Shown in pieces: positions 7,861-46,101 of a stretch of DNA of 64,000 nt. The first letter of the stretch is position 1, and every line of letters starts with the position of its first letter. The stretch comes from Candidatus Omnitrophota bacterium (GTDB lineage Bacteria > Omnitrophota > Gorgyraeia > Gygaellales > Profunditerraquicolaceae). A program made the translations under genes and the position numbers. The stretch covers positions 23,479 through 87,478 of the forward strand of contig WOZK01000031.1 of the NCBI GenBank assembly GCA_011620275.1, in the 5' to 3' direction. Below the pieces are notes generated by a model. It worked only from the letters and a program-made list of their open reading frames with translations, ran no database searches and had not been told where the DNA came from.

Positions 7861-7941
7861 AACCCGGTATTTTACGTTTTAAAACAGCTTGTGATTTATG
7901 ACTATACTTTTTTCAAAGAGCAAATATTAATATAACCCGGC

Positions 7942-7969: not shown

Positions 7970-7973
7970 TGGA

Positions 7974-11110: not shown

Positions 11111-11719
11111 TCAATAAGATATCTTTCTGCCTTTTACGCGCAAGCGTCCGCGCAGTAAAAGATCTATCGCCAGCGGATAAATGCGGTGCTCTGCCTTATG
11201 TATTCTTTTCTCAAGTCCGGCCAAGGTATCATTCCTGCCGATCTTAACTTCTTCCTGCATTATTATCGGGCCGTGGTCGGTCTTCTCATCTACGAAATGC
11301 ACGGTCACTCCGGTAACCTTGGCACCGTATTCGAAGGCGTCGCGTATCGCGTGAGCCCCTTTAAAAGAAGGAAGCAGAGAAGGGTGGATATTGATTATCC
11401 GGTTACGGTAACGTCTGACGAACGAAGGACTGAGTATGCGCATGAACCCGGCCAGAACTACCAGGTCTACGCGGCCGCGGCGCAGAGCGTAAAGGACCTC
11501 TGCCTCGAACAACTCACGGGAAGAAAAATCTCCGCGGGAGACAATCAAAGTCCTTATCCCGGCCCGGGCCGCCTTTTCGATGACCGGCGCCGCCGGATTG
11601 TCGCAAAGCAAAAACGCGATCTCCGCTTTAATCAACCCGCTCTTTACCGCTTTCACTATGGCGAGGGAATTGCTCCCCGTGCCGGAAGCGAATACGGCAA
11701 TCCTGGCTTTCCTTTTCAT
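11111..11719 (-). CDS. purN: Phosphoribosylglycinamide formyltransferase
   Basis: The N-terminus is IAVFASGTGSNSLAIV. The motifs NIHPSLLPSFKG and a formyltransferase-type Asp are present. Length is about 200 aa. Confidence 0.8.
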   Translation of the reverse strand: MKRKARIAVFASGTGSNSLAIVKAVKSGLIKAEIAFLLCDNPAAPVIEKAARAGIRTLIVSRGDFSSRELFEAEVLYALRRGRVDLVVLAGFMRILSPSFVRRYRNRIINIHPSLLPSFKGAHAIRDAFEYGAKVTGVTVHFVDEKTDHGPIIMQEEVKIGRNDTLAGLEKRIHKAEHRIYPLAIDLLLRGRLRVKGRKISY

Positions 11720-11739
11720 AAACCGCTCCTCAAACCCGC

Positions 11740-12528
11740 TTACAAAACGGCTATCGCTTTAACCGGACAGACCTCGACGCACTCCATGCACGAAATACAT
11801 TTAGCGCAGTCTATGACCGCCAGATTATTTTCCACTTTTATCGCCCCGTATTTGCAGGTTTTCTCGCAGCGTCTGCAGGCAATGCAGGCAGACTGACAGT
11901 ATCCGCGCTTAACCGCGGCGGTATCGAGAGAACGACACGCCACGAAGACCTTTTGTTCTTGCGTCCGGAGCGAAAACAGGTGTTTGGGACAAACGCTGAC
12001 GCACTTACCGCAGGCGCGGCATTTATTCTTATCCACGCACGGCAGGCCGTCTTTTCCCATGCTGATCGCGCTGAAAGGACAAACCGTCACGCATGTCCCC
12101 AGGCCTATGCAACCGTAGGGACATTCTTTCGGCCCGCCGAGTAGGGCGACCGCGGCCCGGCAATCCTTTAAACCGGAGTAAATGTATCTTTCCGCTACTT
12201 TCGCTCCGCCGCGGCAATGCAGCACCACGGTCCTCTTGAGGGATTTATCCAGCTTTTTGCCGAGGATGGCCGCTATCTCCCGCTTAACGCTTTCGTCGCC
12301 GGCCCGGCAGGCATCCGGGGAAAGCTCGCCCTTAAGAACGGCCTCGGCGAAACCGAAGCAACCGGCGGCGCCGCAGGCCCCGCAATTAGCCCCCGGCAGC
12401 AGCCCCATTATTTTTTCCAGGCGCAGGTCGGTATTATGCACGGCCAGCTTGCGCGAGGCGAAAGCCAGACCCGCCCCGAACAGCGCTCCGAGCGCCCCCA
12501 GTGTTAAAACCGCCACCAGTATAGACAT
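11740..12528 (-). CDS. rnfB: Rnf electron transport complex subunit B
   Basis: It has an N-terminal TM helix. The RnfB signature is GANCGACGAAGCFGFAEAV. Four CxxCxxCxxxCP ferredoxin motifs are present. Confidence 0.8.
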   Translation of the reverse strand: MSILVAVLTLGALGALFGAGLAFASRKLAVHNTDLRLEKIMGLLPGANCGACGAAGCFGFAEAVLKGELSPDACRAGDESVKREIAAILGKKLDKSLKRTVVLHCRGGAKVAERYIYSGLKDCRAAVALLGGPKECPYGCIGLGTCVTVCPFSAISMGKDGLPCVDKNKCRACGKCVSVCPKHLFSLRTQEQKVFVACRSLDTAAVKRGYCQSACIACRRCEKTCKYGAIKVENNLAVIDCAKCISCMECVEVCPVKAIAVL

Positions 12529-12546
12529 AACTCTATTCCCTCCGGG

Positions 12547-13155
12547 TCAGAACCTGAACCCGTTAAAACCCATGAACGAAAGGCTCATCAGCGAAGCTGT
12601 GACGAAAGCAATGGGGAATTCCCGCACCGCCTCCGGCACGCGCGAATATTCCAGTCTCTCCCTTATGGCGGACATCAAAAGCATCGCCAGCGTATAGCCG
12701 ATGCCGACGCATACGCCCTGAAAGATGGAGAAAATGAAACTACCCGGTAGGGGTTTTCCCTTACTGAAGAACATGTCGGTGTTAAGCACGGCTACGCCCA
12801 GAACGGCGCAATTTACGGTGATCAACGGCAGGTAAATTCCAAACATGCGGTAAAGCGCGGGCATGAATTTGCGGACTACCATCTCCACCAGCTGAACGCA
12901 GGAGGCTATAACCAGTATGAAAGAAATTGTTCGCAGATAAGCAAGATCGAAAGGTATCAAAAGGTAATTATAGACCACCCAGGTGATCGCCGAAGACATG
13001 ACGATGACGAAAAACACCGCTGAACTCATTGCCAGAGCCGGACGGGTCTCCTTGGAAATGGCGATGAAGGAGCACAATCCCAGGAAACGCGAGAGGATGA
13101 CGTTGGAAACGAAAATGCTGGAAATAAATATCGCCAGAAAATGTCCCGCGTTCAT
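12547..13155 (-). CDS. rnfA: Rnf complex subunit A
   Basis: The N-terminus VSNVILSRFLGLCSF is present, with YLRTISFILVIA and LPLITVNCAVLGVAVLN; it matches RsxA along its full length. Confidence 0.85.
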   Translation of the reverse strand: MNAGHFLAIFISSIFVSNVILSRFLGLCSFIAISKETRPALAMSSAVFFVIVMSSAITWVVYNYLLIPFDLAYLRTISFILVIASCVQLVEMVVRKFMPALYRMFGIYLPLITVNCAVLGVAVLNTDMFFSKGKPLPGSFIFSIFQGVCVGIGYTLAMLLMSAIRERLEYSRVPEAVREFPIAFVTASLMSLSFMGFNGFRF

Positions 13156-13742
13156 TCCCTCCTCCCCTTCAACAGATTAAAGAACCCCAACATCCCGCCT
13201 ATGACCAGAAGCGCTCCCGGAGGCAACGCCATCATCAGCGCCGGTTGAAAACCGGGCAAGATTGTATACCCAAGCAGCTGTCCAGAACCGAGCAATTCCC
13301 TGACCGCGGATATAAGCGCCAGTCCCAGAGTGAACCCGACGCCCATCCCGAGAGCGTCTACGAGCGAAGCGGGCAGCGTCCGGTGTGAAGCGAAGGCCTC
13401 GGCTCTGCCGAGCACCACGCAGTTTACCACTATCAACGAGACATATATACCCAGGGCCCTGTTCAACGCGGGGCTGTAGGCCTTCATCACCAATTCGGCG
13501 ATGGTCACGAAAGTGGCGATGACGATAATGAAACACGGTATGCGTATCTTGTCCGGCACGGCCTTCTTTATTAAAGATACGATGCAATTGGAGCCAACCA
13601 GCACGAAGGTGGCTGCCGCACCCATACCCAGCGCGTTCTTTACCGAAGTGGATACGGCCAGCACCGGGCAGAGGCCTAGTGCGAGGACAAAAATAGGGTT
13701 CTGTTTTATTATCCCTTTCAGGAACTCCGGTAACAGCTTCAT
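13152..13742 (-). CDS. rnfE: Rnf complex subunit E
   Basis: The start was moved to the internal ATG at 13742, which overlaps the rnfD stop as ATGA. The N-terminus is MKLLPEFLKGIIKQNPIFVLALGLCPVLAVSTSVKNALGMG. Confidence 0.8.
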   Translation of the reverse strand: MKLLPEFLKGIIKQNPIFVLALGLCPVLAVSTSVKNALGMGAAATFVLVGSNCIVSLIKKAVPDKIRIPCFIIVIATFVTIAELVMKAYSPALNRALGIYVSLIVVNCVVLGRAEAFASHRTLPASLVDALGMGVGFTLGLALISAVRELLGSGQLLGYTILPGFQPALMMALPPGALLVIGGMLGFFNLLKGRRE

Positions 13743-14686
13743 CTCATCTTCCCCGTGCCGTAAATACGCCCGCGGGTGTACCTGTCGATAAATGGAGAAA
13801 CCGCGTTCATCATCAAGATGGCGTAACATGTCCCTTCCGGATATCCTCCCCACAGCCGGATAACCGCCGTTAACAGACCGCATCCCGTACCATAGATCAA
13901 CTGTCCTTGGGCGGTCAAAGGCGATGTCACGTAATCAGTCGCCATGTAAAAGGCACCCAGCACCAGCCCGCCGGAAAGCAGATAAAACAACCAATCCCCG
14001 CTGAACAGCCCGGAAGGTCCGAAAACATAATGAAGTATCCCTGTGGTAAAGAGATAGGAAACCGGAATATGCCAGGTTATATATCCTTTCAAAAAAAGGA
14101 AAACCGCACCTGCCAGCAGCCCTACCACGCACACCTCACCTATACACCCCCCTTTGTTCCCCAGGAAAAGATCCAGATAAGAATACACCTGCCGGAGATG
14201 CCCCTCCTTCAACGCCGACAACGGGGTGGCGGAAGCAACGGCGTCGAAACCCGGAGCCCGAAAAGAAGTCATGTAAGCCGGCCAGGACGCCATAAGGAAG
14301 GCCCTTGCCGCGAGGGCCGGATTGAATATGTTCTGTCCCAACCCTCCGAAAATCTGTTTGCCTACGGCGATTGCGAAAAAGGAACCTACTGCCGGCATCC
14401 ACAGCGGCACGCCGGACGGCAGGTTATACGCCAGAAGCAGTCCGGTAAGAAAAGCGCTGCCGTCTAACAAGGTAACCTGTCTGCGCGTCATTTTTTGCAA
14501 CAGCCATTCCGTGGCCAGCGCTGCCGCGACCGCTGTCCCTATTACTGCCAGGGCCGCATATCCGAAAAGATAGACCCCGGCCGCTCCGGCTGGAAGAAGC
14601 GCCAAACTGACGCCCCACATTATGCGCGCCGTGGATTGATGCGCATGCATATGCGGCGCCGCGGTTACTATAAGCTTATTTCCCAT
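13739..14686 (-). CDS. rnfD: Rnf complex subunit D
   Basis: The N-terminus is VTAAPHMHAHQSTARIMWGVSLALLP. It is a polytopic membrane protein of the NQR2/RnfD family. Confidence 0.85.
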   Translation of the reverse strand: MGNKLIVTAAPHMHAHQSTARIMWGVSLALLPAGAAGVYLFGYAALAVIGTAVAAALATEWLLQKMTRRQVTLLDGSAFLTGLLLAYNLPSGVPLWMPAVGSFFAIAVGKQIFGGLGQNIFNPALAARAFLMASWPAYMTSFRAPGFDAVASATPLSALKEGHLRQVYSYLDLFLGNKGGCIGEVCVVGLLAGAVFLFLKGYITWHIPVSYLFTTGILHYVFGPSGLFSGDWLFYLLSGGLVLGAFYMATDYVTSPLTAQGQLIYGTGCGLLTAVIRLWGGYPEGTCYAILMMNAVSPFIDRYTRGRIYGTGKMR

Positions 14687-15200
14687 TACGTAAAGCCTCC
14701 CTTACTTCGGCCGCTTTCAGGTCTATGGAAGAGCTGACCGCCCGCGAAGAAATAGTGGCCCCGGTTATCGCCTGCACCCCGGAAACCCGGGCCGCATCCA
14801 CGCCGCTGAACCTGCCTGTGAAAGATCCTTCCGCAACCTTGCTTCCCAATCCGGGGGTCTCGTTCTGGTTGAGGACTTTTATCGCTTTTATCTTCGCCTG
14901 GGCGTCCATACAAACCATAGTCTCTATCATGCCGGAATACCCCTTACCCACGGCTTTGAACAACACGCTTAGTAACTTGCCGTTTTTATCATAAGCCCTG
15001 TAGAAGAAGACCGTATCCCCTTTAAGCACCGGTGTGAAAACCGCGGCTTCAGGTTGCAGTCCCTTCAATGCCGCTTCCTCCTCCAGACCAGCCTGCGCCG
15101 CGATACGCGAAGCGGTGACGGCGTTGACCGCCGCAAGCAGACCTCCGGCCGATAATGCTATAAAGCCCAAAATGAACGCGGACCTTAAGATATCTTTCAT
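14676..15200 (-). CDS. rnfG: Rnf complex subunit G (FMN-binding)
   Basis: The start was moved to the ATG at 15200, which overlaps the rnfC stop as ATGA. It has an N-terminal TM anchor. The FMN-attachment motif is ITGATISSRAV. Confidence 0.8.
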   Translation of the reverse strand: MKDILRSAFILGFIALSAGGLLAAVNAVTASRIAAQAGLEEEAALKGLQPEAAVFTPVLKGDTVFFYRAYDKNGKLLSVLFKAVGKGYSGMIETMVCMDAQAKIKAIKVLNQNETPGLGSKVAEGSFTGRFSGVDAARVSGVQAITGATISSRAVSSSIDLKAAEVREALRNGK

Positions 15201-16468
15201 CTGGCGGCCTCCGCTTTGGCTTTCTTTATATATTGTACCAGCCTGCGGTTCGCCGGACATACATATGCGCACGCCCCGCATTCCAAACAATCGGCCAACC
15301 CGTGCCGTTTAGCTTCTTCCAACATCCCTTTTTCGGCCGCCGCCCCCAGCATACAAGGAAGCAACCCGGTGGAACAGACGCGCACGCATCTGCCGCAGCG
15401 TATACAGGCGCTCTCTTCCAGGATACGGCCGCTTTTCTCCCCCAGCACCAACACCCCGCTGGTGGTTTTGATCACCGGGACATCGATCCCGGCCTGGGTT
15501 ATGCCCATCATCGGCCCACCTATGATTATCCTACGCGGTTCTTCTTTAAGCGGACCGCAGAAGGAAATCAGCGCGGATATCGGCGTGCCTGTCCGGACCA
15601 GTAAGTTTGCCGGATTCGACAGGCAATCCCCGGTGACGGTAACCACTCTTTCATAAAGCGGCTTACCGAGAAAAACCGCTTCATAAGCGGCGAACACTGT
15701 GGCCACGTTCTGCACGACGGCGCCGGCTTCAAACGGCAGTTTGCCGCGCGGAACCTCTCTGCCCAGCACGCTTTTAATCAACTGTTTTTCCCCACCCTGG
15801 GGATAAAAAGACCTTAATTTCTTAACCCTCAGCGGACCGGAGGCTTTGGCCAGTAAAAGTTCAACCGCCCTGGGCTTATTGTCCTCAACGGCTATGCATA
15901 TATCCTCGGCCCCCAGTATGCGACCCAACAGCAACGCCCCTTTAATGATCTCGTCGCTTTTCTCCAGCATCAAGCGGTAATCGGAAGTCAGATACGGTTC
16001 GCACTCGGCGCCGTTAACGATCAAAGTCCTCACACGGACCGGAGGTTTAAGCTTGAGGAAAGAAGGAAAACCCGCGCCTCCCATACCTACCAGGCCGGCG
16101 TCGCGTATTATATCGAGAAGTTCCTCCGGTTGCAAAGAGTCCACGTCACGCGCTTCGCGCGCCCGGAAAGCGTAAGAATCAGGCAGCCGCGTCTCTATTA
16201 CCGCCGCGCTGCACCTGCCGAGCACGGGGTGCGCGCAGGTTTCGATTGAAGAAACCGTGCCGGTCACGGAAGAATGAACTGCCGCCGACGGCATGGCCCC
16301 GGCGGAGGCTATCCGCTGTCCGGTAATGACTTTATCGCCCGGCTTAACCTCAAGCAGGCCAAGCTTGCCTAAATGCTGGCAGAACGGGATGAACATCTTT
16401 TCCGGCGGGGGCAGGACCGTTATTTTCTTATCTTCGGTGGCTTCTTTGCGATGCTCTAATTTAACCAT
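15197..16468 (-). CDS. rnfC: Rnf complex subunit C (NADH-binding, two [4Fe-4S] clusters)
   Basis: The motif GMGGAGFPSFLK is present. Two ferredoxin motifs are present: CIRCGRCVRVCSTGLLP and CLECGACAYVCPANRRL. Confidence 0.85.
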   Translation of the reverse strand: MVKLEHRKEATEDKKITVLPPPEKMFIPFCQHLGKLGLLEVKPGDKVITGQRIASAGAMPSAAVHSSVTGTVSSIETCAHPVLGRCSAAVIETRLPDSYAFRAREARDVDSLQPEELLDIIRDAGLVGMGGAGFPSFLKLKPPVRVRTLIVNGAECEPYLTSDYRLMLEKSDEIIKGALLLGRILGAEDICIAVEDNKPRAVELLLAKASGPLRVKKLRSFYPQGGEKQLIKSVLGREVPRGKLPFEAGAVVQNVATVFAAYEAVFLGKPLYERVVTVTGDCLSNPANLLVRTGTPISALISFCGPLKEEPRRIIIGGPMMGITQAGIDVPVIKTTSGVLVLGEKSGRILEESACIRCGRCVRVCSTGLLPCMLGAAAEKGMLEEAKRHGLADCLECGACAYVCPANRRLVQYIKKAKAEAAR

Positions 16469-20178: not shown

Positions 20179-20850
20179 TTAGATCGACGCGCCGCTCGGC
20201 GGCGTGAATTGCCCCGGATCCACGCCGTGCTTCAGCAAAAAATTACACATATCGACAGGCAACGGGGCGGACAAAACGATGCCTCTTCCGGAATAAGGGT
20301 GCCTGAATTCCAACTGCCAGGCATGCAGCATCACTCTCTTTGCCCTCAGGATAAAATCTCTTCTGAAGACAAACCTGGCCTCGCCAACGATCGGATGACC
20401 GATTCCGGTAAAATGTATGCGCAACTGATTGGTCCGTCCGGTTTCCGGGGTCGCGCAGACCACGGAGAAAGCCGAACGCCGCAGCAGCACTACATAAGAA
20501 GTCGAAGCCGGTTTACCTTCTATCGGACTGCGGATAGTCCTTTTCCCTTCCGCCGGGCTGCCGTGCAACACGGCCAGATACGTCTTCCCCACCGTCCTGC
20601 CGCGGAAAATATCCATCATTTTCTTTTGGGCAGACTTGCCCTTGGCATAAACTATCAAACCTGAGGTTTCGCGGTCGAGGCGGTGGCAAGGATGAAAACG
20701 CGGCAAACCGTCCTGATCCCGATTACGGGAGTTTAGAAGGAAAGTAAAATCTTTCTCCCTGTCTCCGGGAGCCGGTATGGTGAGTAGTCCGGGCGGTTTA
20801 TTGAAAACGGCCAGATGATCGTCCTCGTAGATCGCCGGGATATTATTCAT
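20179..20850 (-). CDS. RluA-family pseudouridine synthase
   Basis: The catalytic motif HRLDRETSGLIVYAKG is present. It has no N-terminal S4 domain. Confidence 0.75.
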   Translation of the reverse strand: MNNIPAIYEDDHLAVFNKPPGLLTIPAPGDREKDFTFLLNSRNRDQDGLPRFHPCHRLDRETSGLIVYAKGKSAQKKMMDIFRGRTVGKTYLAVLHGSPAEGKRTIRSPIEGKPASTSYVVLLRRSAFSVVCATPETGRTNQLRIHFTGIGHPIVGEARFVFRRDFILRAKRVMLHAWQLEFRHPYSGRGIVLSAPLPVDMCNFLLKHGVDPGQFTPPSGASI

Positions 20851-20857: not shown

Positions 20858-21802
20858 TCAAAAGGTCTCCAGCATCCGTTCTATGGCCCTGCGGGCGCGG
20901 CTGCGTATCTCCTGCGGGACTTTCACCTCTCCGCGCAGGGTCTCCAGCGCCCAAAGCACTTTTTCCTGCGTAGTGCGTTTCATGTTGGGACACACCGCCG
21001 CCTCGGCCGCCGGATAGAATTCCTTGCCCGGATTGTCTTTCTTCAACCTGTAGATTATGCCGACTTCCGTCCCGACGATGAACTCGCGCGTGGAAGAAGA
21101 ACGAGCGTATTTGGACATCCCGCTGGTGGAAAGGGCGGCATCGGCGAGAGAAATAACGGAAGGCAGACATTCCGGATGCGCCAGGACGCGCGCTTCGGGA
21201 TGAAATTTTTTCTCTTTTTTTATGTCCTCCGGTCTTATCTTTATATGGGTCGGACAGAACCCGTCCCAGGCGATCAGCTTTATCCCGGTTTGGACGCTCA
21301 CGTAGGAAGCCAGATATTTATCGGGGACGAAGATTATTTGCGGCCGGCGGCCCTCTTTTTCCATCTTTTCCGCCACGGCCTTCACCACTCCGACGGCATT
21401 GGTAGAGGTACAGCAGATATCCAGCTCGGCCTTCACCGCGGCCGATGTATTGACGTATCCGACGCTGACAGCGCCGGGATGTTTCTCCTTCAATCCGCGC
21501 AATTCCTCCTTGGTGATCATCCCGGCCATCGGACAAGAGGCGGTTATGTCCGGCATTATCACCTTCTTCTCCGGAGACAGTACGGCGGCAGTTTCAGCCA
21601 TAAAATGCACGCCGCAGAAAATGATCACGTCGGCTTTCGTCCCGGAGGCGATACGGCTTAATTCCAGGGAATCTCCGGTGAAATCCGCTATATCCTGCAC
21701 CTCGGGGAGCTGGTAATTATGAGCCAGAATTACCGCGTTCCTTTTTTTCTTCAACTCCTGTATTTTTTTGCCGATGTTGTCCGCATTCCTTGCCGGTGAC
21801 AT
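20858..21802 (-). CDS. nadA: Quinolinate synthase A
   Basis: It is 314 aa with a full-length match to NadA, including the segment FCGVHFMAETAAVLSP. Conserved Cys ligands are present. Confidence 0.85.
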   Translation of the reverse strand: MSPARNADNIGKKIQELKKKRNAVILAHNYQLPEVQDIADFTGDSLELSRIASGTKADVIIFCGVHFMAETAAVLSPEKKVIMPDITASCPMAGMITKEELRGLKEKHPGAVSVGYVNTSAAVKAELDICCTSTNAVGVVKAVAEKMEKEGRRPQIIFVPDKYLASYVSVQTGIKLIAWDGFCPTHIKIRPEDIKKEKKFHPEARVLAHPECLPSVISLADAALSTSGMSKYARSSSTREFIVGTEVGIIYRLKKDNPGKEFYPAAEAAVCPNMKRTTQEKVLWALETLRGEVKVPQEIRSRARRAIERMLETF

Positions 21803-21803: not shown

Positions 21804-22823
21804 TCAATCCAATACCTTTCTTATTATGCCTCCCCCGACAACTACATCTCCTCTGTAAATCACCGCCGATTGTCCTGGAGTAACCGCGAATTGGGGGAGA
21901 CGGAAAACAATTTTTAGCGTGTTGCCGGATGGCGTTATTTCGGCTGGCTGTTCCGTATGATTATACCGTATCTTCACGTTAAGGACAACCTTCTTTTTCA
22001 ACGGCTCGCGTGGAAAGCTCAGGTTGTTTACGATGAAAGCCGACGCCGAAACCTCCTGCCTCCCGCCCAGCACCACCCTGTTGCGCCGCGCGTCCACCTC
22101 TTTAACGTATAAAGGACGGCCGGAAGAAATACCCAGGCCCTGCCTTTGCCCGACGGTATAAAACGGCACTCCTTTATGACGCCCGAGAACTTTTCCCCCC
22201 GTATCGACGAATTCTCCGGGCAGGCAACCGAATCCCGGAACGGAGGCGAGGAAAGAACGGTAATCGCCGCCCGGGACAAAACATACGTCCTGGCTCTCCT
22301 TGCCGGAAGAAACGCTCAACCCCGCGGAGGAGACAAGCCGGCGCACTCCCTCCTTGGTATAACCGCCGAGCGGGAAAAGCGTGTTCTTGAGCGAATCCGG
22401 AGCAAGACTGTAGAGAAAATAACTCTGGTCTTTTTCTGAGTCGGCCGCTTTTTTTAGGCGGCCGTTTTCTATTTTCGCGTAATGCCCGGTGACGAAATAA
22501 TCCGGCCCAAGGGAAAGGGCCTTGACGCGCAGCAGTCCGAATTTGATGTAGCGGTTGCATCGCACGCAGGGATTGGGGGTCCGGCCCCTGGCGTATTCCG
22601 CGCAGAAGTTATCGATAACCTTGCGCTCGAACTCTTTTCCCAGACGGAATATCCGATGCTCTATGCCGATCTCTTCCGCCGCGCGCCTCGCCGCGCAGAT
22701 ATCCTCGTTCCCCGACAAAAGAGCGGTAATCCCAATTACCCGGAAACCGCGCGATTTAAGTAATAAAGCCGCTGCCGCGGAATCCACTCCCCCGCTTAAA
22801 GCGACCGCAGCCGTTTTTGACAT
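21804..22823 (-). CDS. mnmA: tRNA-specific 2-thiouridylase
   Basis: The PP-loop is ALSGGVDSAAAA. The catalytic Cys motif NPCVRCNRYIKFG is present. It is 339 aa. Confidence 0.85.
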   Translation of the reverse strand: MSKTAAVALSGGVDSAAAALLLKSRGFRVIGITALLSGNEDICAARRAAEEIGIEHRIFRLGKEFERKVIDNFCAEYARGRTPNPCVRCNRYIKFGLLRVKALSLGPDYFVTGHYAKIENGRLKKAADSEKDQSYFLYSLAPDSLKNTLFPLGGYTKEGVRRLVSSAGLSVSSGKESQDVCFVPGGDYRSFLASVPGFGCLPGEFVDTGGKVLGRHKGVPFYTVGQRQGLGISSGRPLYVKEVDARRNRVVLGGRQEVSASAFIVNNLSFPREPLKKKVVLNVKIRYNHTEQPAEITPSGNTLKIVFRLPQFAVTPGQSAVIYRGDVVVGGGIIRKVLD

Positions 22824-25470: not shown

Positions 25471-26679
25471 TTACTCCTTTTTGTAAAGCCTCTCGTTGAG
25501 AGGTTTCACCTTGTAGCCGCTCTCGGCCCCCGGCAGCGCCGCAGAAGGCTCGGTGAGAAAGAATTCTCCTTCCTCGATCCTGGTCTTCAACAGCACGGCT
25601 ATCTTGCGCGCGCGCGCATAGCTGGAAAGGCTGCCTGTGGGAACGGTCTTACCGCGTAGTTTGATGTTCCCGGAACGCAACTCCGCGTAACTTACTTCAG
25701 CGATGATGCGGGATGACCTTTGCGGATAATCGCGGCCGTAATCTACCACCGGAGCGTATATCTCGGCATCGGTAACCGCCGCCCGCCTAACCACTTCCTC
25801 ATCAAAAACGGGGATGGGCACGCCGATGCCTATGGAAAGCGTCACCCCGTAACCCGCCATACTCGTGCCGACCAGCCATTCCGGGCTCATCTGTTTCAGG
25901 TCGCCGATAACCGCAAGCGTACCCGCGCCTCCCAGAGGGATCCCGTTCCTGCCGCGTTCGACGCAGGGGTTGTGCTGCGTCCCGTGCCAGGCTATGTAAC
26001 CGATCCCGCCTCCGAGAAAAATACGGGTGCCTATGCCTATGGTTCGGTAATAGGGGTCTTTCAGCAGAGGCGAAAGCTGCCCGGCGGAAGAATAATTGGC
26101 GTTGCCGAGCCGCGGTTTAAGCATCCCCATATAGGTAAAAACGGTCTTGCCGGAGAGGTTGACTGCAACATTATAATTCTGATAACAATTGCGCATATTG
26201 AAGAGAACCGCCTCGTTTAAATCCCTGATGTTAAGCAGTGTCTCCAATTTTCTCCGGGGATAGCAGTCGGTACCGTAAGCGCTGCATTCCAGACGGACGT
26301 CTTTGCCCGCTGCCAATTCCTGTATCACGTGCCCGCCGCCGTATTTGAATTCCCCGGGAAAAATCTTATTGCGGGGATCATCGTCCGGCACGGCGGTAGC
26401 CCCGAGGAAAACGTCCACGGCGCCAAAAGCGGCATAAACCGGCACGTCATTGACCGTGCAGCTGCCGCCCCCCAGCTTGATCCTCGGCTTGGAGTGACCG
26501 ATATTGAAATAAACCCCGCTGGAACACATGGGTCCGAAAGTGGCGGTGGTGACCACGTCCACCTCCCTGGCGACCTTCCTGACGCCTTTCTTAGCCACCA
26601 GGTCTATTATCTCCTCGGCAGTGACCACCACGGCGTCTCCCCTGCCGATCTTAGCGTTGATCTCTTTGATAGTCTTCAT
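25471..26679 (-). CDS. COG1900/DUF39 sulfur-incorporating homocysteine biosynthesis protein (MA1821-type)
   Basis: It is 402 aa and begins MKTIKEINAKIGRGDAVVVTAEEI, as in archaeal COG1900 proteins. It is followed 16 bp later by the NIL-ferredoxin, a known gene pairing. Confidence 0.65.
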   Translation of the reverse strand: MKTIKEINAKIGRGDAVVVTAEEIIDLVAKKGVRKVAREVDVVTTATFGPMCSSGVYFNIGHSKPRIKLGGGSCTVNDVPVYAAFGAVDVFLGATAVPDDDPRNKIFPGEFKYGGGHVIQELAAGKDVRLECSAYGTDCYPRRKLETLLNIRDLNEAVLFNMRNCYQNYNVAVNLSGKTVFTYMGMLKPRLGNANYSSAGQLSPLLKDPYYRTIGIGTRIFLGGGIGYIAWHGTQHNPCVERGRNGIPLGGAGTLAVIGDLKQMSPEWLVGTSMAGYGVTLSIGIGVPIPVFDEEVVRRAAVTDAEIYAPVVDYGRDYPQRSSRIIAEVSYAELRSGNIKLRGKTVPTGSLSSYARARKIAVLLKTRIEEGEFFLTEPSAALPGAESGYKVKPLNERLYKKE

Positions 26680-26699
26680 TTCCCCTCACTTTGGCCCGT

Positions 26700-26921
26700 T
26701 CAAACCGAGACCACCTCTTTTACTTCCGGTACTTCCTTTTTCAGGATGCGCTCTATGCCCATTTTAAGTGTAAACTGGCTCATAGCGCAGCATCCGCAGC
26801 TGCCGGTGAGTTTCACTTTCACCACTCCGTCTTCTCCGACATCCACCAGATCCACGCTCCCGCCGTCTGCCGCCAGCATCGGCCTGATCTTTTCCAGCAC
26901 TGCCTCAACCTTTTCTCTCAT
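26700..26921 (-). CDS. NifU-like (Nfu C-terminal domain) Fe-S cluster carrier
   Basis: It is 73 aa. The motif LTGSCGCCAMSQFTL matches the Nfu CxxC scaffold motif. Confidence 0.7.
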   Translation of the reverse strand: MREKVEAVLEKIRPMLAADGGSVDLVDVGEDGVVKVKLTGSCGCCAMSQFTLKMGIERILKKEVPEVKEVVSV

Positions 26922-26997
26922 CTAATCCTCCCGTCTGCCGTACTCCATTGACGTGCGATCTTGTTTTGAACGGCCTTGCCCGGTCCGCGAAGATGCG

Positions 26998-27897
26998 TCA
27001 GGACAAATATCTCTCCCCCGTATCCGGAAGGACCGTAACTACCGTCTTTCCCCTGCCGAGCTTCTCAGCCGCCCTCAACGCGGCCCATACCGCGGCCCCC
27101 GCGGAAATCCCGGCAAAGATGCCTTCGCGCGCAGACAATTCAAGACGGCAGGACAAAGCGGCCTCGTCGGTAACCGTAATTACTTCGTCTATCAAAGAGA
27201 CATCCAGCACAGGAGGAATAAACCCCGCTCCTATACCCTGTATCTTATGCGCCCCGGCTTTACCTCCGGAAAGAACCGGGCTGGCCGCGGGTTCGACCGC
27301 GATAACCTTCACGCGGGGGTTCTTCGCCTTCAACGCCGCGCCGACGCCTGTCAACGTCCCGCCTGTGCCGACCCCGCAGACAAAGGCGTCGATCCTTCCT
27401 GGGGTATCGCGCAATATCTCCACCGCCGTTGTCCTGCGGTGGGCTTCGGGATTGGCCGGGTTGCTGAACTGCCTGATGGAATAACCTTTCTTGACGGAAC
27501 GGCCTATTTCCCCGGCTTTATCGATCGCGGCGCGCATGCCGCCGGCGACGGGCGTGAGCACGACTTCCGCCCCGTAACTGCCCAGTATTTCGCAACGCTG
27601 ACGGCTCATATTTTCCGGCATGACTATAATACATTTGTAGCCGCGCAAGGCGGAAAGCATAGCGAGACCTATCCCGGTATTGCCGCTGGTAGGCTCGATT
27701 ATGGTATAGCCCGGTTTCAGCTGCCCGCTGCGCTCCGCTTCATTGACAATATTGAGGCAAATGCGGTCTTTTATACTGCCTCCGGGGTTTCCCCCTTCTA
27801 TCTTTACGAAGACGTTCGCGCCGCGCCGCTCGGGTAGCGAATTCAATTTTACCAGGGGAGTATTCCCAATCAGGGCAGAAACATCTTTAGTGAACAT
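26998..27897 (-). CDS. cysK: Cysteine synthase (O-acetylserine sulfhydrylase), PLP-dependent
   Basis: The motifs GNTPLVKLN, the PLP-Lys region, IEPTSGNTGIGLAM and GVGTGGTLTG are present. It is 299 aa. Confidence 0.8.
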   Translation of the reverse strand: MFTKDVSALIGNTPLVKLNSLPERRGANVFVKIEGGNPGGSIKDRICLNIVNEAERSGQLKPGYTIIEPTSGNTGIGLAMLSALRGYKCIIVMPENMSRQRCEILGSYGAEVVLTPVAGGMRAAIDKAGEIGRSVKKGYSIRQFSNPANPEAHRRTTAVEILRDTPGRIDAFVCGVGTGGTLTGVGAALKAKNPRVKVIAVEPAASPVLSGGKAGAHKIQGIGAGFIPPVLDVSLIDEVITVTDEAALSCRLELSAREGIFAGISAGAAVWAALRAAEKLGRGKTVVTVLPDTGERYLS

Positions 27898-27906
27898 CGG
27901 CGTATT

Positions 27907-28356
27907 TTATATCTGATAGACCATCTGTTCTTTATCTTTACGGTTGAGACTCTCCAGCAGGTCGGAAAAGGTGACGCCGTCGATTATGCGCATAGTGGCG
28001 GCGGAGACCCTCTGCCAGACGTCCCGGAAAACGCACTTATATATATCCCGGCACCCTTTATATCCGTCCTCAACGCAGGCGATCGGCTCAACCGGAGAAG
28101 CGATGAAACGCACAACCTGCCCCAGGGATATCTTCGACGGCGGCCTTGCGAGGAGATAACCTCCTACTTTGCCCCGGCGGCTCTCGACAAAACCGCCTTT
28201 TTTCAATTCCAGCAGCACTTGCTCAAGAAACTTGATGGGAATATCCAGCCGGCCGGCCATGTGCTGGATCCTCACCGGAACCGGCTTGTCATAATAGTGG
28301 ATCGCCAGATCAAGTATGGCTTTAAGCGCGTAATCGCCTTTATATGTTATTCTCAT
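27907..28356 (-). CDS. Rrf2-family transcriptional regulator (IscR/CymR-like, three Cys)
   Basis: The start was moved to the ATG at 28356. The N-terminal HTH begins MRITYKGDYALKAILDLA. The conserved motifs GYLLARPP and CxxxxxC...C (CVEDGYKGC...C) are present. Confidence 0.75.
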   Translation of the reverse strand: MRITYKGDYALKAILDLAIHYYDKPVPVRIQHMAGRLDIPIKFLEQVLLELKKGGFVESRRGKVGGYLLARPPSKISLGQVVRFIASPVEPIACVEDGYKGCRDIYKCVFRDVWQRVSAATMRIIDGVTFSDLLESLNRKDKEQMVYQI

Positions 28357-28359
28357 GGC

Positions 28360-28376
28360 TATAATCCTGATTATAA
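28360..28376. promoter_or_regulatory. AT-rich palindrome TATAATCCTGATTATA between the -10 element and the Rrf2 start codon (candidate Rrf2 operator)
   Basis: It has 6-bp inverted arms. Its position over the transcription start and RBS region is typical of autoregulatory Rrf2 sites. Confidence 0.35.
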
Positions 28377-28382
28377 TAGTAG

Positions 28383-28411
28383 AGTATACCAAAATAATGC
28401 CTTTTTGTCAA
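28383..28411 (-). promoter_or_regulatory. Sigma70-type promoter of the Rrf2-sulfur operon (TTGACA, 17-nt spacer, TATACT)
   Basis: The minus-strand sense reads TTGACAaaaaggcattattttggTATACT. The -35 element lies inside an 8-bp inverted repeat, AATGCCTT / AAGGCATT (28395-28426). Confidence 0.45.
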
Positions 28412-39542: not shown

Positions 39543-40565
39543 CTACCATCCTCCGGGAAATACCCCCGGGATCTTCTCCCCGCAAAAACGGCATTTTCCG
39601 TTATGCATCCCGCAATTCCGGATATGGAATACTTCCCTTTTTATCAAAAGCTCCCGGCACTTATGACAATGCGTATCTGCGCCCCAGCCCGAAACGTTGC
39701 CGGCGTAAACATAAGGAAGCCCGGCCCGCTTGCCGGTCTCCACCGCCTCCCTCACAAGCAGCTCAGGGGTGGATTGAAATGCGCCGAATTTATAATCCGG
39801 GTGGAACCGCGAGATATGCCAGGGTATATTGCGGTCGAGAGAAGCGATAAACCCCGCCAGCCCTTCGAGCTCCTCCCTGGAGTCGTTCAAGCCCGGTATC
39901 AACAGCGTGGTAAGTTCCACCCAAATGCCGAGCTTTTTCATCAAGCGCACCGATTCCAGGACCGGCCTCAACGCCGCCCCGCAGTGTTTGCGGTATGAGT
40001 CATCCCTGAAAAATTTTATATCCACGTTGGCCGCGTCCAGCCAGGGAGCGACGGCCTCCAAAGCCCGGCGGCTCATATAACCGTTGGTAACGAAAACGTT
40101 TTTCAGCCCTTGCTCCCGCGCCGCTTTGCAAGTATCAAGAGCGTATTCCATAAATACCGTCGGTTCGGTATAAGTATATGAAACGCCGGCGCACCCGTTC
40201 TCCACCGCCGATTCCACTATTTTCTCCGGTGGGAATTCTTCTGCCGGCGGCGCTCCGTCATAAAAAGAAACGTCCTGTGATATCTGCCAGTTCTGGCAGA
40301 ACCCGCACTTGAAATTGCACCCGGGAAAGGCAATAGACATGCTCAAGGAACCGGGAAGAAAATGATACAGCGGCTTTTTCTCCACCGGGTCGGCGTTCCT
40401 GCAAACGGGATTGCCGTAGGCGTGCGTCATCAATATGCCGTCCTTGTTGAAACGGACCCCGCAGATACCGCTGCCGCCGGGCAATATACGGCAGGAATGA
40501 CGGCAAAGCAGACAGCGCACCGCGCCGCCGGACTGCTTCACGTACAATATGGCTTCTTTGTCCAT
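39543..40565 (-). CDS. Radical SAM enzyme, AmmeMemoRadiSam-system type (PFL-activase-like)
   Basis: The radical SAM motif is GCNFKCGFCQNWQIS. An N-terminal Cys cluster CLLCRHSC and a C-terminal cluster CHKCRE...CGMHNGKCRFCG are present. The segment DPVEKKPLYHF is conserved. Confidence 0.7.
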   Translation of the reverse strand: MDKEAILYVKQSGGAVRCLLCRHSCRILPGGSGICGVRFNKDGILMTHAYGNPVCRNADPVEKKPLYHFLPGSLSMSIAFPGCNFKCGFCQNWQISQDVSFYDGAPPAEEFPPEKIVESAVENGCAGVSYTYTEPTVFMEYALDTCKAAREQGLKNVFVTNGYMSRRALEAVAPWLDAANVDIKFFRDDSYRKHCGAALRPVLESVRLMKKLGIWVELTTLLIPGLNDSREELEGLAGFIASLDRNIPWHISRFHPDYKFGAFQSTPELLVREAVETGKRAGLPYVYAGNVSGWGADTHCHKCRELLIKREVFHIRNCGMHNGKCRFCGEKIPGVFPGGW

Positions 40566-40580
40566 GGTCAGCGACGGACC

Positions 40581-41288
40581 TCAGCGTATCAATGCCACCT
40601 CGTCTATATACAACACTACCTCTATCTGCTCCGTCTTCAGGTCTACCGGCCGCTCCGTGACGATACCGAGGACCTCGAACTGATAGGACTTCACCCCGTT
40701 ATCAACCCTGCTCAAAGAGGTTTTGTCGTCTCCGGTACCCGTCCATTTCACGCTGTTCCAGTCGCGCTGATAGTCATAGCGTGTGGTCAATTCCTTGAAA
40801 TACACCCGCTCCTCAAGCCACTCCCCGGTATGCACGATCCTGGAGGCACGCAGTATCTCTCCATCCCCATCTATGATATCGGTGGCGATCTTGACCATCA
40901 CAGGTCTCTGCTCCGTACCTTTGACGGGTTCGACAAATATTTTGTAAGAGATCCCGGATATTTCATCCCAATCCAATCTTGCCGGCCGATTCTCCCACTC
41001 GCATCTTTTTTCGATAAGGCCCTGCCCGCAGGCCAGAAAATTATAACTTCCCGGGATGAGCTTCAGGCTCAATTTAAGAGACCTGCCGAACGGAGACGCG
41101 CTCCTGGAGGAACTTCCCACCGCGAGATTAAAATCGCGGCTGCCGTATTCCACTCTTTTTACCGCGTCCCTGGAATCGAACCTGCTTATCACTACCCGGC
41201 GCGGATTAGCCGGGCGCAGAAGTGTGCCGGCGATAACGACCGCCGCCGATACGATCAACAAAACAGCTGTTTTTCTCAACCTGGTCAT
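40581..41288 (-). CDS. Hypothetical secreted protein
   Basis: It has a signal peptide or anchor, MTRLRKTAVLLIVSAAVVIAGTLL. No recognisable domain was found. Confidence 0.4.
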   Translation of the reverse strand: MTRLRKTAVLLIVSAAVVIAGTLLRPANPRRVVISRFDSRDAVKRVEYGSRDFNLAVGSSSRSASPFGRSLKLSLKLIPGSYNFLACGQGLIEKRCEWENRPARLDWDEISGISYKIFVEPVKGTEQRPVMVKIATDIIDGDGEILRASRIVHTGEWLEERVYFKELTTRYDYQRDWNSVKWTGTGDDKTSLSRVDNGVKSYQFEVLGIVTERPVDLKTEQIEVVLYIDEVALIR

Positions 41289-41330
41289 TTTTCCTCCTTG
41301 AAGTTTTTATCCCGGCGGCGAAACACAGAA

Positions 41331-42356
41331 TTATTTACCTATGCGGAATGCCTCCAGAGCCTTTTCGTCAGCCGGTAAACAATACGAAATTGTCTCCGCG
41401 CCTCCCGCCTGCACCCTGTGGGATATCTTTACTCCGCAGCCCGGAGCCGGACGGCAGTAATAAGCCAGAAGCGAACCAGACAATGCTATAAGGCCGACAT
41501 CAAACTCCCCTCTGGCCAGGGCGACCGGGCCGGACACATCTATGGTATAAAAAAGGACATCGCCCGGTCCGGCAAAGGATTCCAGTAACCCGTTTTCTTC
41601 CTCATCTCTTCCCACTATGAGCTTTGTTTTTTCGGAAAGCCTGAAATGCCTGCCGAACTTGAGCAGTTCAAATCCTCTCCTCTCCAGTCCTTCGTGGCAG
41701 CAAAGGTCGCGCAGACGCCCGGAAAAGATCGGATCAGTAAGCAAGCATCCTCCGGCGGCATTCACCGGTTCTTTTATCCCCACAGACTCCGCCAGGCGCA
41801 ATTGCGCCTGCCTGGACCGCCCGCTTAGACTGAGCAATTTTGCGCGCTCCACCCATCCTTGTTTTTCAGGTATGGTCTCCGGTAGTATCCGGCCGGAAAG
41901 AGGCCTCAAGATCAAACCGGGAATACCGCTTTCGCGGTCGGCGATCTCCAAAGATTGTCTGCGCTGGGACATGCCGCGCTGCCCCAGGACTTCCCCGGTA
42001 ACTACAAAATCGGCTCCCGCCCGCCGCATGAACTCCGCGCCTTTCTTCAGCATCAGTATCCGGCAGTCCAGACACGGATTCATATTGGAACCGAAGCCGT
42101 ATTCGGGAGACTTCAAGAGAGCGACGGCCTCCCCGGAAGCGTCAACCCCGGCAAGGGGCACTCCCGCCCATTCTTCCAGACGGGAAATCAACCTGCTTTT
42201 TGCTCCCGTTCTATCGCGCTCGCGCGGCAGATAAGGCAGCAGGACCTTCAGAGGCAAGACTGTTATCCCCTGATCGATCATCAGTCTGGCGGCGAGTATA
42301 CTGTCCAGGCCGCCTGAAATAAGCGCTACGGCTTTTATCGGTTTTTTTCGGGACAT
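41331..42356 (-). CDS. PP-loop ATP pyrophosphatase, MnmA/ThiI-like (probable thiolation or adenylation enzyme)
   Basis: The PP-loop is ALISGGLDSILAA. The MnmA-like catalytic Cys motif is NMNPCLDCR. The ThiI-like motif VVTGEVLGQRGMSQRRQSL is present. Confidence 0.55.
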   Translation of the reverse strand: MSRKKPIKAVALISGGLDSILAARLMIDQGITVLPLKVLLPYLPRERDRTGAKSRLISRLEEWAGVPLAGVDASGEAVALLKSPEYGFGSNMNPCLDCRILMLKKGAEFMRRAGADFVVTGEVLGQRGMSQRRQSLEIADRESGIPGLILRPLSGRILPETIPEKQGWVERAKLLSLSGRSRQAQLRLAESVGIKEPVNAAGGCLLTDPIFSGRLRDLCCHEGLERRGFELLKFGRHFRLSEKTKLIVGRDEEENGLLESFAGPGDVLFYTIDVSGPVALARGEFDVGLIALSGSLLAYYCRPAPGCGVKISHRVQAGGAETISYCLPADEKALEAFRIGK

Positions 42357-42438
42357 TTCCTACGGCCCTCTTTGCAAAACACGCACAAATAATACCCCAT
42401 TTTCTGAAATAAGTTCGGTAACGGGCCCGCCGAAACGG

Positions 42439-43797
42439 TTATTCCGTAAGGCGGACTGCAGGCAGGTTTTTCAAAGAACGTCTGATTTCGGCGGCAGGAT
42501 GGGAAAAATTTTTCAGCTCTCCGCCGAGAAACTTGTCATAAGACGCGAGGTCGAGGAAACCGTGCCCGCTGAAGTTAAAAAGAATGCACGCGCCTTTGGG
42601 CGCCCTTTTTGCCGCGTCGATGACAGCCTTAACGGCGTGCGCGGTCTCCGGGGCAGGAACGATGCCCTCGGTCCGGGCAAAAGCCAGAGCGGCCTTAAAA
42701 ACTTCCAGCTGCGGATAAGACCGGGCCTCGACTATCTTCTTTCTGCAAAGCAGGCTTACCAGAGGAGAACATCCGTGATATCTTAAACCTCCGGCGTGTA
42801 TGGAAGGCGGCATAAATTTGTGTCCGAGAGTGAACATCTTTAACAGCGGCGTGAGAGAAGCGGTGTCTCCAAAATCGTACTCATACAAGCCCCTGGTCAG
42901 GGTGGGGCAGGCGGAAGGTTCGACCGCTATTATGCGCATCTCCGGACGCCTGCGCAATTTGTCCGCCACGAAGGGAAAAGCCAATCCGCCGAAATTACTG
43001 CCGCCGCCTACGCATCCGATCACAAAATCCGGCGTCTCTCCGATAAGTTTAAGCTGCTCCTTGGCCTCCTGCCCGATGACAGTCTGGTGTAGAAGAACGT
43101 GGTTCAACACGCTGCCAAGGGCGTAATTGGTATCCTTTCTGCCGGCGGCATCCTCCACCGCTTCAGAAATAGCCACCCCGAGACTCCCGCGGCATCCAGG
43201 ATCTTCCTTGAGTATGGCTCGCCCGCAAACAGTGGTCTTTGAAGGGGAAGCGACGACATCCGCGCCCCAGATTTTCATCAATGAACGCCGAAAAGGTTTC
43301 TGGTTGTAACTTACCTTTACCATATAAATCATACACTTCAAGGAGAAGACGTTGCAGGCGAAACTCAACGCCGCGCCCCACTGGCCGGCCCCGGTCTCGG
43401 TAGTCAAACGGCGTATACCTTCTTTTTTGTTGAAATATGCCTGCGCTATGGAAGTATTGATCTTGTGGCTGCCGGTGGGCGAAACACTTTCGTCTTTATA
43501 GTAAATGCGCGTTTTAGTTCCAAGATACTTCTCCAGCCGCAAAGCCCTCTTCAAAGGGGTGGGCCTCCAAAGCCTGTAAATATCCCTTACCGCGGCCGGG
43601 ATAGCGAACTCTTTCTGCCGGCCCATCTCCTGCCGGATTAATGAAAGAGGGAATATTGTATGCAGGTTCTTCGCCGACAACGGCCGGCCGGTGGCAGGGT
43701 TCAGTGCCGGAGGAGCGGGAAAAGGCAGATCGGCAAGCAGATTATACCAGACTGTCGGTATATGCTTCTCCGACAGAATGACTTTACTTTCATCCAT
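42439..43797 (-). CDS. TrpB2-type tryptophan synthase beta-like PLP enzyme
   Basis: It is 452 aa. The PLP-Lys motif is PTGSHKINT. The Gly-rich loop is [15 protein letters not shown]. The TrpB2 length class is longer than canonical TrpB. Confidence 0.75.
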
Positions 43798-45544: not shown

Positions 45545-45997
45545 TTAATCGCCGCTCTGCGCGTCGGAAGCGGGCGGCGGCTCCTGGAGGTACTCCTCCG
45601 GAGAATTCTGGGCGTCTTCCATTTTTTCCACGCTGATATTTACTGCCGCATTATTTCCGCCCGTGTCCGAAACGTAATCAACACTCACTATATCCTGCGC
45701 CTTAAGTTCGGAAATATCTTTTATATTCTCGTAAGAGGTTTTGTTGTCTACAGACAGGCTTATCTCTTTCTCGTTGTCTGTTTCATAATCAAGGTATCTC
45801 ACGATGACCTGTTTCTTGGCGGCATCTACCAGAACGACCTCTCCCCAAAGCCACTGCACCTCTTTTATCCCGCTGTCGGCGATGGCCTGATTCTCCACCG
45901 CTTTATTGTCCCGGCTTAATTCCTCGGCCAGGCACGTTCCACCGGCGAAAAAGAACGCCGCAGCAACCGCCGTGAATAGCACTTTGCATATCTTCAT
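45545..45997 (-). CDS. Hypothetical small secreted protein
   Basis: The internal start gives MKICKVLFTAVAAAFFFAGGTCLA, which reads as a signal peptide. The C-terminal tail is acidic and low-complexity. Confidence 0.4.
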   Translation of the reverse strand: MKICKVLFTAVAAAFFFAGGTCLAEELSRDNKAVENQAIADSGIKEVQWLWGEVVLVDAAKKQVIVRYLDYETDNEKEISLSVDNKTSYENIKDISELKAQDIVSVDYVSDTGGNNAAVNISVEKMEDAQNSPEEYLQEPPPASDAQSGD

Positions 45998-46101
45998 TCC
46001 GACTCCTCCTTTGCCGCCGGACGGCTCATCCGGAAACGCCTCCGCCACGCCACAATTTAGCATACGCCTTGCTCTTTGTCAAGACGGGTAAAAACCGCGC
46101 G

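Follow-up and report, generated by a model that had tools for sequence, protein, structure and literature searches.

A four-gene cluster in Candidatus Omnitrophota as a probable lineage-specific juxtaposition that includes a predicted ThiI + NFACT-R tRNA sulfurtransferase

Introduction

The four genes considered here lie side by side in a 64-kb stretch of DNA (referred to below as the window) from contig WOZK01000031.1 of assembly GCA_011620275.1, a metagenome-assembled genome (MAG) whose source is placed in Candidatus Omnitrophota by the names of close homologues. They encode a radical S-adenosylmethionine (SAM) enzyme, a protein of no recognised family, a PP-loop ATPase and a stand-alone TrpB2-type pyridoxal phosphate (PLP) enzyme. 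In this report, we conclude that the four genes probably represent a lineage-specific juxtaposition within an extended run of closely spaced housekeeping genes that share one direction rather than a dedicated pathway. Three of the four belong to described families, to which each typed gene adds a new member. The gene identities, domain architectures and neighbourhood distribution from which we argue are directly established. The genes are:

39543-40565, minus strand: radical SAM enzyme of the AmmeMemoRadiSam type, 340 amino acids (TIGR04337)
40581-41288, minus strand: protein of no recognised family, 235 amino acids (no Pfam or NCBIfam match)
41331-42356, minus strand: PP-loop ATPase, ThiI-type with a C-terminal NFACT-R_2 domain, 341 amino acids (PF02568 and PF18297)
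42439-43797, minus strand: TrpB2-type PLP enzyme, stand-alone, 452 amino acids (NF009057 and TIGR01415)

The original prediction for this DNA had described four co-directional genes separated by gaps of 15, 42 and 82 bp, and open reading frames (ORFs) are found at exactly those coordinates, all on the minus strand, with the gaps running 82, 42 and 15 bp from the TrpB2 gene to the radical SAM gene. That prediction had also offered three interpretations of the cluster, namely a route to a sulfur-containing or modified amino acid or nucleoside, a tRNA-modification module or a set of adjacent unrelated genes.

Conservation of the four-gene order

Gene neighbourhoods were surveyed at about 170 related loci (L001-L171). 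On the PP-loop side, the window proteins were searched by tblastn against 80 loci of other species, of which 64 extend at least 1.1 kb downstream of the PP-loop gene and were counted as informative. On the radical SAM side, 80 metagenome loci (L092-L171) with radical SAM proteins 45-58% identical were collected, 61 of them being informative in that they extend at least 1.1 kb upstream.

The order TrpB2, PP-loop, 235-amino acid protein, radical SAM is seen only in relatives whose PP-loop proteins are 67-100% identical, a group comprising seven loci (L081, L082 and L084-L088). These seven loci retain far more than the four genes, their shared gene order running without exception for over 20 kb between SecA/Lnt and SufCD/LDH (SecA, Lnt, PIG-L, PF04008, LpxL-like, BioY, HAD, CsgG-like, the four genes, P-type ATPase, SufC, SufD and LDH). 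Because the entire block is syntenic in these relatives, the four-gene order there is a matter of vertical synteny and not of specific linkage. A comparison of gene neighbourhoods across genomes, proposed from the outset as a check, did not find this order at any of the 80 + 80 loci further afield or in the three contexts of TrpB2 described below. Also part of the conserved Omnitrophota block, upstream of the PP-loop gene, are a CsgG-like lipoprotein (PF03783; 43952-44701, minus strand) and a 172-amino acid protein without a family (45545-46063, minus strand).

The compactness of the cluster, noted in its first description, is shared with its surroundings. Between 11 and 64 kb of the window essentially all genes are on the minus strand, and the median gap across the 48 co-directional genes of this block is 42 bp. 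Gaps of 82 bp or less account for 30 of 47, and in 10 of 45 consecutive gap triplets all three are this short. The compactness of the four genes is not above background; close spacing on a common strand is the norm in this genome and does not distinguish these genes from others. A promoter scan of the region performed no better than on shuffled sequence. No Rfam element marks the four-gene region as a unit, the one match (to DicF, E=0.99) being at chance level, and a repeat search for a mobile unit or regulatory leader around the region returned short chance-level repeats and nothing more.

These results bear most directly on the most elaborate alternative, a four-gene pathway to a sulfur-containing or modified tryptophan-derived amino acid or nucleoside in which TrpB2 would carry out beta-replacement, the PP-loop enzyme adenylation and thiolation and the radical SAM enzyme C-H functionalisation, with the secreted protein acting in binding or export of the product. 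Such a pathway would be in keeping with the tight spacing on one strand, with the lack of any strong terminator predicted in the gaps and with retention of the arrangement in relatives whose PP-loop proteins are as little as 67% identical. That retention, however, is limited to the clade with more than 20 kb of synteny, and neither TrpB2 nor the 235-amino acid protein was detected in any of the 80 PP-loop loci (two weak PALP matches there are CysK/M) or in any of the 80 radical SAM loci. Furthermore, orthologues of TrpB2 turn up in a variety of other places, the NFACT-R domain of the PP-loop protein and its match to tRNA-bound ThiI point to a macromolecular rather than a small-molecule substrate, and the 235-amino acid protein appears to be membrane-anchored or extracytoplasmic. 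We regard the four-gene pathway as highly improbable and as largely refuted by the neighbourhood survey. As a new four-gene pathway, therefore, the cluster has no significance: inherited synteny and two lineage-specific insertions explain it.

The other interpretations offered at first fare differently for different genes. The idea of a tRNA-modification module fits the PP-loop gene, and possibly the PP-loop and radical SAM genes as a pair, but does not extend to TrpB2 or the 235-amino acid protein. Conversely, TrpB2 and the 235-amino acid protein are best regarded as adjacent unrelated genes, whereas the PP-loop and radical SAM genes have the appearance of long-standing operon partners. The amino-acid or nucleoside route fails the refutation test set in the original prediction, since co-localisation of the four genes is not kept outside the one narrow syntenic clade.

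The PP-loop protein

The PP-loop protein matches the ThiI model PF02568 with 35.9 bits (cutoff 20.5) and, at its C-terminus, the NFACT-R_2 model PF18297 with 59.5 bits (cutoff 26.9), the latter domain having been overlooked initially. The motifs reported from the first reading of the sequence, an MnmA-like NPCxxC and a ThiI-like TGExLGQ, are indeed present (as NPCLDC and TGEVLGQ), together with the ATP-binding motif SGGLDS. An MnmA-like identity does not follow: the protein scores only 19.8 bits against NF001138, for which the cutoff is 284, and can be ruled out as MnmA. Nor is it a canonical ThiI, as it scores 34.9 bits against TIGR00342 (cutoff 264.5), with the PP-loop part alone being matched, and lacks a THUMP domain. 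Judged by these equivalog models, the protein is thus neither of the ordinary second paralogues, MnmA or ThiI, that had been envisaged as a simpler outcome.

Proteins in which a ThiI-type PP-loop domain is joined to DUF814/NFACT-R, without THUMP or rhodanese domains, were described by Burroughs & Aravind 2014 (PMC4075521). They keep the PP-loop, the CxxC motif and an internal cysteine, along with GRxRxxQ and TxxE loop motifs, and are nearly mutually exclusive with THUMP-containing ThiI across genomes; a variant pathway of tRNA 4-thiouridylation has been predicted for them (PMC4075521). The window protein carries a CxxC + C cysteine triad (C95, C98 and C204) as well as the GRxRxxQ and TxxE loop motifs. 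An alignment of 16 family members shows no variation at C95, C98, C204, G179, R180, R182, Q185, E164, R236, R239 or R250, and T161 is nearly invariant. Structural comparison identifies tRNA-bound ThiI as a match, followed by other PP-loop sulfur and nitrogen transferases including [4Fe-4S]-LarE, NcsA and TtuA, whilst the C-terminal domain matches the NFACT-R domains of FbpA, CCDC25, NEMF and Rqc2. By these signatures, the window protein can be assigned to the ThiI + NFACT-R family, already described as a predicted 4-thiouridine (s4U) family, and is a predicted tRNA 4-thiouridine-type sulfurtransferase.

The family is a large one (homologues at E<=1e-5 number at least 7930) and is spread across Omnitrophota, Thermodesulfobacteriota, Geobacterales, Planctomycetota, Nitrospirota, Nitrospinota, Atribacterota, Nitrososphaeria and other groups. 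Naming across the family is inconsistent. The public annotation of the exact protein cluster to which the window protein belongs is 'hypothetical protein', and distant relatives are named tRNA 4-thiouridine(8) synthase ThiI or MnmA/TrmU.

How such an enzyme might work can be sketched from its relatives. The NFACT-R domain would hold the tRNA, and adenylation of O4 of the uridine would be the task of the PP-loop domain, with sulfur then being delivered via a [4Fe-4S] cluster on Cys95, Cys98 and Cys204 to yield s4U at position 8 (s4U8). The cofactor we infer by likeness to archaeal TtuI/ThiI: the rhodanese-less enzymes of Methanococcus maripaludis and Pyrococcus furiosus also possess a CxxC + C triad, and their [4Fe-4S] cluster is needed for sulfuration of U8 (PMC9825150). 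The ultimate source of sulfur would be cysteine, acting through NifS/IscS-type desulfurases. If the family prediction is correct, ThiI + NFACT-R proteins would thiolate tRNA uridine in organisms without THUMP-containing ThiI.

Neighbours of the PP-loop gene in other genomes

All ORFs of the 80 PP-loop loci were clustered and the identities of the recurrent neighbours confirmed with NCBIfam. Across phyla, the families that recur are the Rrf2 regulators (15 loci), CysK/M (10 loci, each within 5.5 kb of the PP-loop gene), NifS/IscS (nine), LarE (eight) and MnmA (eight), a set with a clear theme of sulfur mobilisation and trafficking and of tRNA thiolation. The NifS/IscS cysteine desulfurase gene is often directly downstream of the PP-loop gene (L016, L035, L037 and L073). 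The LarE-type ATP-dependent sulfur transferase (TIGR00268, 322 bits) adjoins ThiI + NFACT-R genes in its eight loci, which span several phyla, often at a distance of 3 bp; it is 0-10 bp from the PP-loop gene in L003, L004, L007, L012 and L017 and within 2 kb in L001, L028 and L038. The 2014 description of the family lists only TusA as a conserved neighbour (PMC4075521). No TusA-like ORF with a CPxP motif is present in the window, and within 3 kb of the 80 PP-loop genes only spurious CPxP matches were found.

The radical SAM enzyme

The radical SAM protein scores 322.3 bits against TIGR04337 (cutoff 220) and also matches PF04055, in keeping with its first identification as an enzyme of the AmmeMemoRadiSam type. 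Its cluster-binding motif, C83-N-F-K-C87-G-F-C90 (CxxxCxxC), is invariant in 11 orthologues. These orthologues also share two additional invariant sets of cysteines, one N-terminal (C18, C21, C25 and C35) and one C-terminal (C300, C303, C325 and C328). The best solved relative is 3c8f and the protein is kin to enzymes of the pyruvate formate-lyase (PFL) activase type.

The usual AMMECR1 and MEMO1 partners of such enzymes had been noted as missing from the window, and a scan of its approximately 55 larger ORFs indeed revealed no AMMECR1 (PF01871) or Memo (PF01875) domain. Neither adjoins the radical SAM gene in the sister loci or appears among the recurrent neighbours at the 80 related radical SAM loci. 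Two genes downstream of the radical SAM gene in sister loci, encoding proteins of 224 and 207 amino acids, were considered as AMMECR1 candidates and rejected: the products are an isochorismatase and a HAD-like phosphatase. At the 80 radical SAM loci of the metagenome sample, the most frequent immediate neighbour is a class I SAM methyltransferase (Methyltransf_11/25), which adjoins the gene in 11 loci, a number exceeded by no neighbour family; endonuclease III (six) and MoaA (five) come next.

The PP-loop/radical SAM pair

In ten sister-group loci (L002, L008, L018, L021, L029, L033, L049 and L092-L094) the radical SAM gene is directly downstream of the PP-loop gene, and at eight of the ten junctions the TGA stop codon overlaps the ATG start codon in an ATGA sequence, with gaps of approximately 10 and 22 bp at the other two. 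The PP-loop proteins of these lineages are only 46-59% identical to each other, and overlapping stop and start codons at such divergence are typical of operon partners. The sister group lacks the gene for the 235-amino acid protein, and the PP-loop and radical SAM genes abut there; this gene is therefore an insertion into a formerly coupled pair.

The history that we favour is as follows. In the ancestor of one Omnitrophota sub-lineage the radical SAM gene would have followed directly downstream of the PP-loop gene, in translational coupling with it. In the clade to which the window belongs, a gene for a putative membrane-anchored beta-sandwich protein resembling a carbohydrate-binding module (CBM) would then have been inserted between the two, and a stand-alone TrpB2 gene would have come to fill the slot upstream of the PP-loop gene that is taken in sister lineages by a ZIP, FeoB or DtxR gene.

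A further alternative takes the pair more seriously, proposing that the PP-loop and radical SAM proteins form a two-gene RNA-modification module acting on the same tRNA or nucleoside, for example through a radical SAM step on or next to s4U, or sharing an Fe-S or sulfur supply, with TrpB2 and the 235-amino acid protein as passengers. The ten adjoining loci, eight with the overlap, are what such a module would predict, and the order of PP-loop gene followed by radical SAM gene is kept in the window clade also. There is in addition a single case of proximity outside the Omnitrophota synteny block: at L113:4057-5995, from an AT-rich and apparently unrelated lineage, a TIGR04337-like radical SAM gene and a ThiI + NFACT-R gene (cut by the contig end) are separated only by an HPRT-like gene, the gene order being opposite. 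The literature lends some support as well. RNA base modification has been predicted for the AMMECR1/radical SAM/dioxygenase system (Balaji & Aravind 2007, PMC2034487), making a functional link between the radical SAM enzyme and a tRNA thiolase thematically plausible, and AMMECR1 has been linked to NFACT genes in archaea (PMC4075521).

Set against this is the wider distribution of the two genes. The radical SAM gene is near the PP-loop gene in only seven of the 80 PP-loop loci, all from Omnitrophota with wider shared synteny; it is missing from 57 of the 64 informative loci and does not adjoin the PP-loop gene in the 73 loci outside the clade. From the other side, a PP-loop gene is found upstream of the radical SAM gene in three of the 61 informative loci, these being the three closest (L092-L094), and is missing from the other 58; across all 80 radical SAM loci, 76 have no PP-loop gene nearby. 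The seven PP-loop-side loci with a radical SAM gene share CsgG-like, HAD, BioY and LpxL-like genes upstream and thus represent the same inherited neighbourhood. Indeed, every adjoining locus that reaches far enough upstream shares these genes and ZIP, so that inheritance alone can explain the pair. Locus L014 keeps the same upstream synteny without the radical SAM gene, having Fur and FeoB downstream in its place, and in the window clade the pair is split by an unrelated gene. One independent case (L113) among approximately 150 loci is about what would be expected by chance. A neighbour-joining tree of the PP-loop proteins was too crude to address monophyly of the radical SAM-linked loci and was not relied on. 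On balance, we consider the two-gene module unlikely. The more specific proposal, that the coupled ThiI + NFACT-R/TIGR04337 pair in part of the Omnitrophota marks a real shared pathway in which the radical SAM enzyme acts on tRNA with or after the thiouridine synthase, we consider distinctly doubtful; if true, it would be the first concrete pointer to a substrate for a family of radical SAM enzymes, widely distributed among bacteria and archaea, that is uncharacterised.

Lineage-specific juxtaposition thus remains our preferred explanation for the four genes, with some points weighing against it. The PP-loop and radical SAM genes may be a genuine functional pair, given that the overlaps persist at 46-59% identity. 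A terminator scan, uninformative as to the limits of operons, found no strong terminator in any of the three gaps (82, 42 and 15 bp), and the four genes may therefore be co-transcribed. Finally, a literature search for biochemical characterisation of ThiI + NFACT-R or TIGR04337 members returned only annotation mentions and the two predictions from the Aravind group, so that the activities discussed here are predictions.

At several sister Omnitrophota loci (L002, L008, L014, L021, L029 and L033) genes for a ZIP transporter, FeoB, a DtxR-like repressor with FeoA, or Fur flank the PP-loop gene or the pair, and the counterpart flanks in the window are a P-type cation ATPase and SufC/SufD. Such metal-homeostasis flanks may indicate that Fe-S enzymes and metal supply are regulated together.

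TrpB2

The TrpB2 protein passes both models for its class, with 692.7 bits against NF009057 (cutoff 366) and 631 bits against TIGR01415 (cutoff 518.85). It aligns over nearly its full length with crystallised tryptophan-forming TrpB2 proteins (phmmer E=5.5e-135 to 6hul_B), and its HKINT, the motif of the catalytic lysine, lines up with the same motif in 6hul_B, all of which bears out its first identification as a stand-alone TrpB2-type PLP enzyme. Because orthologues of approximately 70% identity are found across many Omnitrophota, the protein appears to be vertically inherited and conserved in this phylum. Three orthologues (69-74% identity) were looked up and are encoded, respectively, between rpoD and gatCAB, beside GH77 and GroES-like genes and in a glycosyltransferase region, with no PP-loop, TIGR04337 or trp gene nearby in any of these contexts. 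Co-localisation of TrpB2 with trp genes elsewhere, which had been raised as a possible outcome, was therefore not seen in these three cases, where the gene is stand-alone and its position variable. No trp genes were found in the window itself. The block at 11.1-17.8 kb, considered as a possible trp operon lacking trpB, proved to consist of PurN, RnfBAEDGC and an MFS transporter.

A stand-alone TrpB2 class (trpB2_o/trpB2_a) was described by Merkl 2007 (PMC1854888). As reported by Busch et al. 2014, in the form cited in PMC11917138, TrpB2 enzymes use O-phospho-L-serine; they are reported to depend on it and to use indole with high affinity. With these properties taken from the literature, the window protein is a predicted O-phosphoserine-dependent, indole-scavenging tryptophan synthase beta subunit.

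Another alternative is that TrpB2 stands in for the CysK/M found with ThiI + NFACT-R genes in other phyla and, being a related PLP enzyme of fold type II that uses O-phosphoserine, would provide the thiolation enzyme with cysteine or activated sulfur. The ten CysK/M-bearing PP-loop loci are consistent with this, as is the substrate reported for TrpB2 enzymes. The window protein, however, is a high-scoring, canonical TrpB2, TrpB2 is found beside the PP-loop gene in no other lineage, and a bona fide CysK (415 bits) is encoded with an Rrf2 regulator 14.5 kb away in the window. Substitution for CysK/M seems to us extremely improbable.

The 235-amino acid protein

A hydrophobic helix (residues 2-23) forms the N-terminal part of the protein encoded between the PP-loop and radical SAM genes. 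An AlphaFold model of moderate confidence (pLDDT, the predicted local distance difference test score, of 67.7) places a beta-sandwich after this helix, and the modelled beta-sandwich resembles a CBM. Most simply, this is a membrane-anchored or exported envelope protein, for which a part in nucleoside or amino-acid chemistry in the cytoplasm is difficult to envisage. Only 20 homologues, 62-96% identical, were found in 5.8 billion clusters, and there were three strong representatives among 1.84 billion. Most of the homologues are unnamed; four of the five that are named come from Omnitrophota, the fifth being labelled Planctomycetota. The protein thus appears to be clade-restricted.

Other genes in the window

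A canonical MnmA (353.9 bits against a cutoff of 284, with all three Pfam domains) is encoded at 21804-22823 on the minus strand, 18.5 kb from the PP-loop gene, adjoining genes for NadA (20858-21802) and a pseudouridine synthase (20179-20850), both also on the minus strand. Given this MnmA, the genome has a separate enzyme for 2-thiouridine at position 34 (s2U34). A sulfur amino-acid group at 25471-28392, again on the minus strand, comprises the Rrf2-family regulator, CysK and a PF01837 HcyBio protein (COG1900-type homocysteine sulfur incorporation). In other phyla Rrf2 and CysK/M flank ThiI + NFACT-R; in the window they lie in this separate group.

Further away, PurN is followed at 11111-16468 (minus strand) by a complete Rnf complex operon, in the window order rnfB, A, E, D, G, C; several of the predicted ORFs here overlap by 4-145 bp, probably as a result of over-called start codons. 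A fragment of a DDE transposase (PF13751; ORF 7360-7860, plus strand) coincides with the only marked GC dip in the window (6000-8000; 0.441 versus approximately 0.53) and sits where a short plus-strand segment switches to the long minus-strand block.

Significance and comparison with known systems

Two modest points are of use. The PP-loop protein, now annotated 'hypothetical protein' in its clade, can be named as a candidate ThiI + NFACT-R tRNA sulfurtransferase, and the overlapping PP-loop/radical SAM pair, together with the NifS, LarE, CysK and Rrf2 neighbours found elsewhere, provide testable leads for two families.

Compared with the ThiI + DUF814/NFACT-R family as described (PMC4075521), the window protein shares SGGxDS, CxxC and the internal cysteine, GRxRxxQ, TxxE and the conserved NFACT-R arginines, is likewise without THUMP and rhodanese domains and has sulfur-mobilising neighbours in other genomes. 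It differs in that the TusA neighbour reported for the family was not seen in the window or the 80 sampled loci, and in the presence of a TIGR04337 radical SAM gene downstream in one Omnitrophota sub-lineage, an association that is not in PMC4075521. With respect to the AmmeMemoRadiSam system (PMC2034487), the window enzyme passes the TIGR04337 cutoff and shows the PFL-activase-type kinship, but the AMMECR1 and Memo-like partners of that system are not in the window and the conserved neighbour here is instead a PP-loop gene of the tRNA-thiolation type. The TrpB2 protein is of the same class as the stand-alone enzymes of Merkl 2007 (PMC1854888), with the same catalytic lysine and a location outside a trp operon, its sole novelty being the clade-specific position beside the PP-loop gene.

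The archaeal TtuI/ThiI enzymes (PMC9825150) provide a parallel for the chemistry. Like them, the window protein combines a PP-loop domain with a CxxC + C triad and has no rhodanese domain, a likeness suggesting that sulfur transfer may be mediated by the same type of cluster. The two differ in how tRNA is approached: the archaeal enzymes bind tRNA by NFLD + THUMP, whereas the window protein carries NFACT-R.

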